Positions 9,306 to 56,991 of a stretch of 64,000 bases of DNA are shown piece by piece; positions within the stretch are counted from its first letter, which is position 1, and the number at the start of each line of letters is the position of its first letter. The translations under genes were made by a program, and so were the position numbers. The stretch comes from an uncultured bacterium (GTDB lineage Bacteria; Patescibacteriota; Minisyncoccia; Phycocordibacterales; UBA9973). The stretch covers positions 32,033 through 96,032 of the forward strand of contig CAITQP010000006.1 in assembly GCA_903894565.1 (NCBI GenBank), written 5' to 3'. The notes under the pieces were generated by a model. That model worked only from the letters and a program-made list of their open reading frames with translations, had not been told where the DNA came from and did no database searches.

Positions 9306-9884
9306 CTATTTCTTCCCAAGCAGTTTCAGGGCTTCTTTGATTCGAGCGTTTGTTCCAACAATATCGTTTGGAATTTCTTTGACGACTTCGCGAGCTTCAT
9401 TTTGAGAATATCCGAGTGCCTTGAGGGCTTCGATGATATCGCTCTCGGCACGGAGGACACCAGGCGTTTCGCTCATGTTGCTATGAGCACGGAGTTTGTC
9501 GCGCAGTTCAAGCACAACTTTTTCTGCTGTTTTGCGACCAATGCCGGAGACTTTGGTGAGGTAGCTCGTATCGCCGGTGGCGATTGCTTTTTTGAGTGTT
9601 TCGGTTGATGTTGCACTCAAAATACCAAGTGCTGATTTGGGCCCGATACCACTGACTGAAATGAGGAGTTCAAAAAAATCTTTTTCGTCGCTTGTGTCGA
9701 ATCCGTAGAGATCGAGGGCGTCTTCGCGCACGGCGAGGTACGTATGCAGACTTGCGCGCGTATCGAGATCGAGCCGTGCGAGTGTGTCGCTTGAGCACGA
9801 GACTTTGTACCCAACACCATTCACGTCGAGGACGACGTACTTTTCTGCTTTGTCTATAATGGTGCCGGAGAGGTGAGCTATCAT
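9306..9884 (-). CDS. ruvA: Holliday junction DNA helicase subunit RuvA
   Basis: MIAHLSGTI...VLDVNGVGY N-terminus and tandem helix-hairpin-helix motifs VSGIGPKSA / VSGIGRKTA. Confidence 0.85.
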   Translation of the reverse strand: MIAHLSGTIIDKAEKYVVLDVNGVGYKVSCSSDTLARLDLDTRASLHTYLAVREDALDLYGFDTSDEKDFFELLISVSGIGPKSALGILSATSTETLKKAIATGDTSYLTKVSGIGRKTAEKVVLELRDKLRAHSNMSETPGVLRAESDIIEALKALGYSQNEAREVVKEIPNDIVGTNARIKEALKLLGKK

Positions 9885-10046
9885 AATCCATAGTATATAG
9901 GAAAGAGCCGAGCGCTGGTAGGGAAGCACGGGATTGCAAAAAAATGCTTTTCTGGTATAGTTTGCGGGTATTGCTTCTTAGCTGTGTCTCGGCGGAAGCG
10001 AGAAATCTTTGTATTCTATACACTATTAATCTATTAAGAACATACT

Positions 10047-10301
10047 ATGCCAATCACCAGTTCAGCCAAAAAGGCTATCCGTGTCAGTGCTCGCAAGAAG
10101 CTTGTTAATGATCGTCGCACACGCACGATGAAAGATGAGGTCAAGAAGATCGAAAAGGCAGTCAAAGCCGGAATGAAAGATGAAGCTTTGAAGATGATGT
10201 CAGTTACATTCGCTGCAATCGACAAGGCTGCGAAGCGTGGAGTCATCAAGAAGAACACTGCAAGTCGCAAAAAGGCTCGCATGGCTCGTCTTGTTAAATA
10301 G
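10047..10301 (+). CDS. rpsT: 30S ribosomal protein S20
   Basis: MPITSSAKKAIRVSARKKLVNDRRTRTMKDEVKK; length and composition typical of bS20. Confidence 0.85.
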   Translation: MPITSSAKKAIRVSARKKLVNDRRTRTMKDEVKKIEKAVKAGMKDEALKMMSVTFAAIDKAAKRGVIKKNTASRKKARMARLVK

Positions 10302-10303
10302 CT

Positions 10304-10392
10304 CGCAAAAGCACAAACAAAATATGCAGAAAAAAACACGGAGGAATGGGTCGACCGTGTTTTTTTCTGCATATTTTGTTTGTGCTTTTGCG
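10304..10392. repeat. 38-bp perfect inverted repeat with a 13-nt loop (left arm 10304–10341, right arm 10355–10392)
   Basis: CGCAAAAGCACAAACAAAATATGCAGAAAAAAACACGG ... CCGTGTTTTTTTCTGCATATTTTGTTTGTGCTTTTGCG; the arms are exact reverse complements. Confidence 0.9.
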
Positions 10393-10424
10393 AATTCTTT
10401 GCCGGACTGTATAATCAGGGGACT

Positions 10425-10682
10425 ATGTCATTATTGAATTTTTACGGACGCGAGTGCCCACACTGCCACACGATGGAACCATTAATCACGAAGCTCGAAG
10501 AGGAAACAGGAGTCAAAGTGGAACGTCTCGAGACATGGCACGACGAGAAGAACGCCAAACTACTCTCTGAATATGACAAGGATTTCTGCGGGGGAGTGCC
10601 ATTCTTCTTCAATACAGAAACCAAAAAATGGATTTGTGGCGAGGCGGATATGGACGAACTGAAGACTTGGGCAGGGAAATAG
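10425..10682 (+). CDS. Thioredoxin-fold protein (CPHC active site)
   Basis: MSLLNFYGRECPHCH... resembles glutaredoxin/thioredoxin-like small proteins. Confidence 0.6.
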   Translation: MSLLNFYGRECPHCHTMEPLITKLEEETGVKVERLETWHDEKNAKLLSEYDKDFCGGVPFFFNTETKKWICGEADMDELKTWAGK

Positions 10683-10724
10683 AATAAAGGCGCTCCAATT
10701 GTGAAGCGCCTTTATTGCACATTT

Positions 10725-11243
10725 TTATTTCGTTAGCATTCTCTTTTCGGGGATTGGCCCCATTTTCATTCCACTGAGACGATACACGAGCATTGATCCA
10801 TCAAATGCATCGGTTAATATCATGATCAGTTTTCCTCCCGTACCAGTCATTATTTCTGGGAGGATAGTTGCTGTATACCCATTTTTAATTAGGGTATCAA
10901 CGGTTCGCGCTGCGCTTTGACGGGGGTTGTCTACTGCAAGGGACAGTGCATTTGGGGGGAGCAAGTTGGTTGGCTCGTCGAGCCAACCGAGAACTGTCGT
11001 GTTATCTTTTAATAACATTTGGTTGCTGGGTCGTGGAGAAAAAGTGAACCTTTCTCCTAGTCCAGCTTCACGGTCAAAAATTTTAGCCAAAAGTATGGCC
11101 GTTTTTTGATTCTTTACCCCATAGTAGCGATGGCCTCTATCTGGAAGTAAAGTAAAATTGTTTACGAAATGAACGTAGCTTAGGGTCAAGCTGTATAGCA
11201 CAAGGGCTACTACTGCGACCTTACGTAAATTGATTTTCTTCAT
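10725..11243 (-). CDS. Hypothetical exported protein (possible SPOR-like C-terminus)
   Basis: N-terminal signal/anchor MKKINLRKVAVVALVLYSLTL; no firm domain match. Confidence 0.4.
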   Translation of the reverse strand: MKKINLRKVAVVALVLYSLTLSYVHFVNNFTLLPDRGHRYYGVKNQKTAILLAKIFDREAGLGERFTFSPRPSNQMLLKDNTTVLGWLDEPTNLLPPNALSLAVDNPRQSAARTVDTLIKNGYTATILPEIMTGTGGKLIMILTDAFDGSMLVYRLSGMKMGPIPEKRMLTK

Positions 11244-11378
11244 AAAGTACTTAAAATGGTTGACACTCAGTCTAACATATTAATTTAAAAAGTCAAATTT
11301 TGTATACCCAGAAACCCTGTATTCACAAGCTTGTTTGAGATATCTTTACTAATTTTCCAAAATAACGTATAGTCTAGC

Positions 11379-21925: not shown

Positions 21926-22161
21926 TTTTTACTGGATGCGAAGGGGACAATTGTCTATTACAAAGGTCTGTGTGATAATCTAAGGTATTATCACGCGTAT
22001 ATTCAAGCTCTCGGTATTGTTGGACCATTAACACGAAACGCCATGGCTAAGGTGCTCGGATCAATTCAATAAGAAGGCATTTCTGATGTAATTCAAAAGC
22101 ACCCTGTTGGGTGCTTTTGAATTGAGGGGAGGGGTAGCAAGGAGTAAATTTCTTGGGTCAA

Positions 22162-31212: not shown

Positions 31213-31235
31213 ACCATTCTAACAAAAAGAACGGC

Positions 31236-31263
31236 AATTGCCGTTCTTTTTGTTTATCCATAT
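31236..31263. terminator. Perfect palindromic hairpin AAAAAGAACGGCAATTGCCGTTCTTTTT downstream of tRNA-Ser
   Basis: Seen directly; could act as a bidirectional terminator. Confidence 0.5.
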
Positions 31264-51197: not shown

Positions 51198-51267
51198 TGA
51201 AATAATTCCTAACGTCGTCTAGTAGGGAGCACAACGAAAAACACCCTTACATTGTAAGGGTGTTTTT
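51198..51267 (+). repeat. About 70-bp intergenic repeat element ending in a perfect terminator hairpin (copy 1)
   Basis: TGAAATAATTCCTAACGTCGTCTAGTAGGGAGCACAACGAAAAA + ACACCCTTAC-ATT-GTAAGGGTGT-TTTTT; second copy at 54993–55067. Confidence 0.8.
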
Positions 51268-51308
51268 CTATACAAAATTGAGGTTGGAACCTGTGTTAGA
51301 ATTTATAT

Positions 51309-56878: not shown

Positions 56879-56991
56879 AAAAGGAGAACAAAGCCCGCCG
56901 GAGATATCTCCGGCGGGCTTTGTTGACAGGGGAGACAGAACCCTGTATATTGTTAGTATAACTAATAGTTAGATAAACTAACAATATTGCC

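Follow-up and report, generated by a model that had tools for sequence, protein, structure and literature searches.

A 39-bp perfect palindrome after rpsT in an uncultivated member of the Patescibacteria, with mirrored arm changes and an inverted loop, as a probable terminator-type hairpin

In a 64-kb window (the whole stretch that we analyzed) of a metagenome-assembled genome from an uncultivated, Paceibacteria/'Nomurabacteria'-like member of the Patescibacteria, the gap between the stop codon of rpsT and the predicted promoter of a thioredoxin-like (trx-like) gene is occupied by an inverted repeat with perfect 39-nt arms. We think it fairly probable that this is an rpsT hairpin of the terminator type that has grown into a 39-bp perfect palindrome and been kept perfect by template switching. 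The evidence comes from the layout of the hairpin, from homologous hairpins whose two arms have changed in step, and from a loop that is found in both orientations.

Results

A long perfect palindrome lies between rpsT and a trx-like gene

The initial annotation of this locus had described a perfect 38-bp inverted repeat with a 13-nt loop. The repeat was present and its loop had the length given, but the perfect arms are in fact 39 nt long (Table 1). The 5' arm (TCGCAAAAGCACAAACAAAATATGCAGAAAAAAACACGG) is the exact reverse complement of the 3' arm, the loop between them (10342-10354) reads AGGAATGGGTCGA, and the 5' arm begins after a single nucleotide that follows the rpsT stop codon (TAG, 10299-10301). 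The claim that the palindrome far exceeds an ordinary terminator stem also held, as the runner-up among perfect inverted repeats in the window has 17-nt arms; the longest perfect arm in 20 shuffles was 11 nt. Folding, which had been put forward as a check on the repeat, gave a minimum free energy of -69.2 kcal/mol for RNA of the + strand (z = -12.8) and -67.5 kcal/mol for the - strand (z = -13.4), both relative to dinucleotide-preserving shuffles, and none of the shuffles (0/200) folded as stably. Two mirror-image ORFs containing VFFSAYFVCAF had been reported on opposite strands; we located both (10034-10372 on the - strand and 10237-10437 on the + strand), and they are artefacts, by-products of the palindrome.

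Table 1. Features of the rpsT-trx-like region in window coordinates, and the five hairpin haplotypes with their sources
Feature	Position or source	Strand	Basis or detail
ruvA	9306-9929	-	neighbor upstream of rpsT
rpsT (30S ribosomal protein S20, 84 aa)	10047-10301	+	ORF; Pfam PF01649 Ribosomal_S20p; 80 homologous loci
Imperfect inverted repeat, full extent	10296-10400		46-nt arms, 3 mismatches, 93% complementary; rpsT stop codon inside
5' arm of perfect 39-nt inverted repeat	10303-10341	+	sequence
A7 tract of 5' arm, pairs with T7/U7	10330-10336	+	sequence; fold
Core hairpin, CACGG / 13-nt loop / CCGTG	10337-10359	+	stem identical in all five lineages
3' arm of perfect 39-nt inverted repeat	10355-10393	+	sequence
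T7 (U7) tract directly after core stem; inferred rpsT termination point	10360-10366	+	sequence; standard intrinsic-termination model
Predicted sigma-70-like promoter of trx-like gene	10388-10415	+	-35 TTGCGA 10388-10393, 16-nt spacer, -10 TATAAT 10410-10415
Thioredoxin/glutaredoxin-like CxxC protein, 85 aa	10425-10682	+	ORF; weak Pfam Thioredoxin match
Ordinary terminator hairpin of trx-like gene	10683-10716		12-nt perfect arms, -17.6 kcal/mol; comparison
Haplotype W	the window		loop AGGAATGGGTCGA; 39-nt perfect arms
Haplotype G1	L085, L087-L090, L092, L094 (at least 8 sample assemblies)		loop TCGACCCATTCCT; core arm AAAATCGCAAAAACAAAATACGTACTAAAAAACACGG
Haplotype G3	L093, L096-L100		loop CTGGCCCTCCT
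Haplotype E	L003 (MAG ELA106)		loop CTCCTCCT; one bulge and one G-U pair
Haplotype G2	L086		loop AGGACTGGGTCGA; diverged right arm

The two flanking genes were as first identified, an S20 gene and a gene for a thioredoxin-like CxxC protein. The gene order across the region is ruvA (-), rpsT (+), the hairpin, the trx-like gene (+), a 172-aa ORF (-), tRNA-Arg (+), and a histidine kinase with a response regulator (-). The promoter predicted for the trx-like gene scores 10 of 12 consensus matches, and the last 6 nt of the 3' arm, at its outer end, double as its -35 hexamer. Haplotypes W, G1, G3, and E all retain the two hexamers 16 nt apart, with a spacer of varying sequence that in G1 and G3 lies wholly inside the 3' arm.

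The conserved -10 box ends 9 nt before the trx-like ATG. If this box is used, the trx-like mRNA would have a leader of ~3 nt and would be effectively leaderless, unless AGGGGA (10417-10422) acts as a Shine-Dalgarno sequence on read-through transcripts. Further downstream, the segment from the trx-like gene to tRNA-Arg(GCG) (window 10683-11343, L085:2141-2660, L093:756-1350) is wholly different among lineages: the window has the 172-aa ORF (-) there, G1 and G3 have other ORFs, and the flanks align at 81-92%. This segment is a small variable island beside the tRNA gene.

The core of the hairpin has the layout of an intrinsic terminator

Intrinsic terminators usually have a G+C-rich stem of ~5-14 bp, a loop of 3-8 nt, and at least 5 U in the 8 nt just 3' of the stem. 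The core stem of the palindrome, taken alone, has 5 bp (4 of them G-C pairs) and a predicted stability of -7.6 kcal/mol, which becomes -14.6 kcal/mol with the A7:U7 extension; the end of this core stem lies 58 nt past the rpsT stop codon. A consensus terminator scan made no call on this core, with its 13-nt loop and a stem of only 5 bp; judged by its parts, it appears to be a weak yet recognizable intrinsic terminator. The outer ~27 bp are superfluous to the intrinsic-terminator model, and the tail beyond the full 39-bp stem, AATTCTTTG, is only moderately T-rich.

We compared this layout with 80 related rpsT loci, collected as S20 relatives from a genome collection and all from metagenome-assembled genomes (MAGs) of Patescibacteria (Paceibacteria/'Nomurabacteria'-like). 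In most of these 80 species, a hairpin with an A-tract, a GC stem, and a T-tract lies no more than ~80 nt past the rpsT stop codon; over the whole set, the best perfect hairpin there has arms of 11 nt at the median and 26 nt at most. Because most of these rpsT hairpins share its form at such arm lengths, the hairpin in the window is the extreme of a continuum. A short conventional terminator in relatives had been named in the initial annotation as grounds against an unusual element; that is what the distant relatives have, but the closest ones have kept the long hairpin, which is restricted to a small group of related species.

Three other Paceibacteria species (L061, L049, and L060) have perfect arms of 24-26 nt after rpsT, so long perfect terminator palindromes seem to recur at this gene in the clade. 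Perfectly symmetric terminators also seem to be the norm in this genome, where other hairpins of the window with 12-17-nt perfect arms repeat the design of an A-rich 5' arm, a GC core, and a T-rich 3' arm. Perfect palindromes with 15-17-nt arms lie at window positions 56887-56924, 51236-51268, 31221-31254, and 22090-22123.

Among the functions first proposed for the palindrome, a very stable terminator for rpsT fits best, as a prediction from its position after the stop codon, the U7 tract, and the terminators of relatives. An attenuator, proposed alongside it, is unlikely, given that the downstream trx-like gene has its own conserved promoter right after the hairpin, and none of our results pointed to a protein-binding site. 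From these features we consider the hairpin most likely to be the intrinsic terminator of rpsT and an insulator.

The palindrome is recovered in independent assemblies

The initial annotation had raised the concern that the repeat could be an assembly or sequencing error, such as a palindromic chimera. Foldback chimeras can indeed yield perfect palindromes, and the orientation of the loop in a long inverted repeat can be ambiguous for a de Bruijn assembler. However, a different assembler recovered each arm separately with its own unique flank: in the Logan k=31 assembly of run ERR4193932, one contig stops at window position 10332 and the next begins at 10364, and the two carry S20 and Trx-like proteins identical to those of the window. 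The ends of these contigs (L001:1-30 and L002:3257-3286; window 10302-10332 and 10364-10394) are reverse complements of each other, a symmetric break inside the arms of the kind that arises when both arms are in the reads and each is longer than k. Moreover, the NCBI MAG ELA106 has a homologous long hairpin at the same site, as do over 15 contigs assembled separately from GROS21-1 samples, giving at least four related lineages from independent assemblies. The arms are lineage-specific and mutually consistent across many independent samples and projects, and the flanking genes are intact. The independent assemblies exclude the suspected error, and we see hardly any chance that the palindrome is an artefact.

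A more distant Logan contig, L095, terminates 33 nt past its rpsT stop codon, which suggests another palindrome-induced break.

The two arms change in step

Relatives carrying the long hairpin were gathered through 90%-identity clusters of S20 and the Trx-like protein (the GROS21-1 contigs) and through a genome scan (MAG ELA106), and they define, with the window, the five haplotypes of Table 1. Predicted folding is comparably strong across these lineages, from -65 to -80 kcal/mol; the G1 hairpin reaches ~51 nt with 2 mismatches, at -78 kcal/mol. For counting pairs we aligned the left arms jointly with the reverse-complemented right arms and set aside a whole-hairpin MAFFT alignment, in which gaps fell differently in the two arms.

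Between W and G1, 9-10 of the 39 aligned arm positions are different; among these changes are a cluster in which ATATGCAGA is replaced by ATACGTACT and a mirrored indel or shift of ~5-6 nt. Every one of these differences is mirrored in the other arm and always exchanges one Watson-Crick pair for another, leaving no arm mismatches in W or in the G1 core. G3 differs from G1 by one further mirrored change, from A-T to T-A, and no G-U or mismatch intermediates were seen in the arms of W, G1, and G3. The single G-U pair of lineage E is the only hint of tolerance at the RNA level. At the outer ends of the arms, TCGCAA/TTGCGA is unchanged in W, G1, G3, and E.

To place these changes on a scale, we counted the differences between W and G1 at 4-fold degenerate sites in three genes, rpsT, ruvA, and the trx-like gene; there were 52 in 166 sites (31%), compared with an arm divergence of ~25%. 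With 9-10 mirrored changes in 39 positions set against 31% at 4-fold sites, the arms change at an approximately neutral rate and yet stay complementary; under independent drift, by our own calculation, ~11 of the 39 pairs would be expected to be broken in each lineage. Because stepwise compensation should be slower and should leave G-U intermediates, which W, G1, and G3 do not contain, we favor copying between the arms at the DNA level. The length and perfection of the arms likewise point to a DNA-level process and not to base-by-base selection, as far as the compared sequences allow us to judge.

Two contigs show further features of their own. In L088 (1500-2140), a G1-type rpsT, hairpin, and promoter are joined to a G3-type trx-like gene, with the change-over between the -10 box and about codon 9, pointing to homologous recombination among strains present together, or to a mix of strains in the assembly, just past the hairpin. 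In MAG ELA106 (L003:4255-4320), the rpsT stop codon is followed directly by GAGGAGGAGGG, which complements the loop CTCCTCCTCC of the hairpin; this complementarity, absent from the window, would allow an alternative pairing or a pseudoknot.

The loop occurs in both orientations

The 13-nt loops of W and G1 are exact reverse complements of each other (13/13), with the length preserved. The G1 orientation was reproduced in at least eight independent sample assemblies, and because these agree we take it to be determined by the data. The W orientation comes from a single assembly and should be resolved if the arms are shorter than the assembler's largest k. Across 997 nt covering ruvA, the intergenic region, and rpsT, G2 matches G1 at 100% identity, yet its loop has the opposite orientation and is identical to that of W at 12 of 13 positions, with one substitution. 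The 'TCCT-CCGTG' orientation is common to G1, G3, and E, so the flips in W and G2 were probably separate events.

The G2 contig (L086:1750-1970, compared with L085:1750-1890) also switches, from the 3' arm onward, to DNA with a KH/KhpA-like gene in place of the trx-like gene. The nearest cluster of such KH genes (P0016) belongs to a different organism, at 84% nucleotide identity, in which the gene follows rpsP and is not accompanied by a similar hairpin. L086 could thus be either a genuine rearrangement with its breakpoint inside the palindrome or a chimeric assembly.

Searches for known RNAs, small ORFs, and further copies

At gathering thresholds, Rfam identified only tRNAs in the window. 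A permissive search of 9900-10800 gave only sub-threshold matches to models of miRNA precursors and sRNAs, with 44 bits against gathering thresholds of 120-211, and we rejected a known RNA family at this site; the matches, of which plant and animal miRNA precursors were the best, reflect a generic long hairpin. A small ORF initiated in the loop (GGAGGAATG..., 22 aa, hydrophobic) was also considered and rejected, as its ATG lies ~1 nt from the Shine-Dalgarno-like motif and is lost in G2 and as the flip alters the downstream frame. Scanning metagenomes with the trx-like protein yielded just two loci, both of them distant and without the hairpin core.

Discussion

A proposed origin and function

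If the hairpin works as its layout predicts, RNA polymerase leaving rpsT would transcribe A7-CACGG-loop-CCGUG-U7, the core stem would form, the A-tract would zip onto the U-tract, and the transcript would be released at or just after U7, whereas a read-through transcript would fold into the complete -69 kcal/mol hairpin. The trx-like promoter, with its -35 box in the 3' arm, would be insulated from rpsT transcription, and the rpsT mRNA is probably shielded by the hairpin at its 3' end. A nascent strand folding back during replication would copy one arm from the other, by intra-hairpin template switching or gene conversion, so that substitutions and indels in one arm would be passed to the other. 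The stem would extend outward in this manner until the stop codon and the -10 box were reached, and the loop would now and then be copied in reverse, producing a flip between strains. Perfect stems, compensatory changes of several bases, and inverted loops are documented products of template switching, in bacteria as elsewhere (PMC8794818), and a survey of perfect inverted repeats describes conserved arms and fast-changing spacers near terminators (PMC13155455). We infer template switching here from its footprints, and very strong selection for pairing or recombination of a cruciform could leave similar patterns. We take the outer ~27 bp to be length added by the same copying, mostly neutral or of mild use, and they may or may not serve a function of their own.

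Alternative explanations

The long terminal inverted repeats around a short center, and the downstream regions that differ between strains, would suit a MITE-like or REP-like mobile insertion, which the initial annotation had listed among its candidates together with a search for the element elsewhere. However, the arm sequence has no second copy in the 64-kb window, a k-mer search of related loci (639 kb) located the element nowhere but at the orthologous site, and neither viral contigs (exact-arm search) nor phages and plasmids (blastn) gave a match. Comparison of the flanks, ...AAATAGC and AATTCTT..., showed no direct repeat that could be a target-site duplication. The element instead keeps its site in lineages that have diverged by 31% at 4-fold sites, and its core resembles the local type of terminator, all of which makes a mobile insertion very improbable. 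The presence of both loop orientations in near-identical backgrounds (G1 and G2) raises instead the prospect of a miniature inverton, a phase-variation switch whose loop is flipped by a recombinase, and one orientation reads GGAGGAAUG, like a Shine-Dalgarno sequence plus a start codon. This we judge highly improbable: a Pfam scan of 10 neighboring proteins (4.3-15.1 kb) identified no recombinase, invertase, or transposase, with matches to Fpg, RuvA, Trx-like, response regulator, and others, so that within ~5 kb the palindrome is surrounded by Fpg, RuvA, S20, the Trx-like protein, and a two-component system. In addition, recombination sites on either side of a segment of 13 bp would be too close together for synapsis, the segment has no promoter, the spacing of the Shine-Dalgarno-like motif to the ATG is ill suited to a start site, the G2 loop has ACTGGG in place of the ATG, and the eight G1 assemblies have one orientation, with no mixing seen among them.

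Other explanations keep the hairpin at its site and give it a different role. Selection at the RNA level only, for a long double-stranded element at the 3' end of rpsT that serves as an RNase III site or blocks 3' exonucleases, would draw on the facts that RNase III needs a duplex of roughly 20 bp, which 39 perfect pairs exceed, that a site between co-directional genes recalls the intercistronic rpsO-pnp hairpin of E. coli, that the G-U pair of lineage E is tolerated only in + strand RNA, and that folding is equally strong in all lineages. It is nonetheless unlikely, as the arms change almost neutrally (~25% vs 31%) and with a mirrored indel but without intermediates in W, G1, and G3, whereas compensation one base at a time should be much slower and leave wobble pairs; the loop inversion is an event at the DNA level, and with termination at U7 most transcripts would lack the outer 3' arm. 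We find it distinctly unlikely that the palindrome is a DNA-level regulator, either a cruciform that negative supercoiling extrudes to hide the trx-like -35 box or a site for a dimeric protein. Its arms are perfect Watson-Crick complements and AT-rich, which favors extrusion, its 3' arm contains the -35 hexamer and, in G1 and G3, the whole promoter spacer, and its outermost hexamers are conserved in four lineages. But the inner arm sequence varies freely among lineages, unlike an operator, the conservation of TTGCGA is explained by the -35 box itself together with mirroring, the 13-nt spacer slows extrusion, and ordinary terminators across the window have much the same design in a shorter form. 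A bolder version, in which a cruciform switches the promoter of a redox gene off and on, or in which the orientation of the loop (GGAGG-like or CCUCC-like in RNA) acts as a heritable two-state switch on the fate of rpsT mRNA, is a long shot; if true, it would be a natural regulator based on structural DNA or on a minute inversion in a minimal CPR genome.

Likeness to known systems

A hairpin of the kind proposed here has parallels in several known systems. With intrinsic terminators that have a paired A- and U-tract ('bidirectional-type') it shares the position after a stop codon, the G+C core, the U7 tract, and the upstream pairing A-tract. It differs from them in its 5-bp core, its 13-nt loop, and ~27 bp of extra pairing beyond the A:U tracts, with 39 perfect pairs here vs 12-17 elsewhere in the window and at most 26 in the 80 relatives, and the co-directional flanking genes make bidirectional termination needless. 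The RNase III hairpin of E. coli rpsO-pnp is likewise a long stem-loop just 3' of a small ribosomal-protein gene with a co-directional gene next to it, whereas here the next gene is trx-like and has its own promoter directly after the hairpin.

The flip of the loop is matched by minute inversions in chloroplasts, a subject of many plastome papers, in which a short loop downstream of genes flips between close relatives with the stems intact; Kelchner and Wendel reportedly described such minute hairpin-loop inversions in chloroplast non-coding DNA in 1996. The chloroplast cases are in plastids and their stems are usually shorter and imperfect, whereas the present one is bacterial. The flips at rpsT likewise probably happened more than once. 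Invertons also have inverted repeats around a segment that is found both ways, but the segment here is 13 bp long and without a promoter, none of the 10 neighboring proteins scanned is an invertase, and no mixture within a population was seen in the assemblies.

Earlier work on quasipalindrome mutagenesis is said to be that of Ripley and Lovett. The closest match is to hairpins attributed to template switching (Monttinen and Loytynoja 2022, PMC8794818), which share with ours perfect stems, clustered mirrored changes, mirrored indels, stem extension, and loop inversion. The events reconstructed in that work concern chiefly genes for rRNAs and microRNAs, where the stems are short and the loops have 4 nt, whereas the hairpin described here has a 39-bp stem and an asymmetric 13-nt loop, lies in the intergenic spacer of protein genes in an uncultivated member of the CPR, and is interpreted from a comparison of five lineages. 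Template switching is thus already known, and no new system is revealed; what is new here, as read from the aligned haplotypes, is the mirrored evolution of the arms together with the flip of the loop at an rpsT hairpin.

Implications

Palindromes of this kind break k=31 assemblies such as those of Logan, spawn spurious mirror ORFs, and can be mistaken for MITEs, invertons, or 'microRNA-like' RNAs. Contigs that end symmetrically inside the arms are, conversely, of practical use in recognizing a perfect inverted repeat (31 nt or longer) as genuine. For the Patescibacteria, the rpsT hairpin offers a clean natural case from an uncultivated lineage in which the arms change at about the neutral rate and yet remain perfectly complementary while the loop flips, and it supports template switching during replication over stepwise compensatory mutation as a process that shapes long terminator stems.
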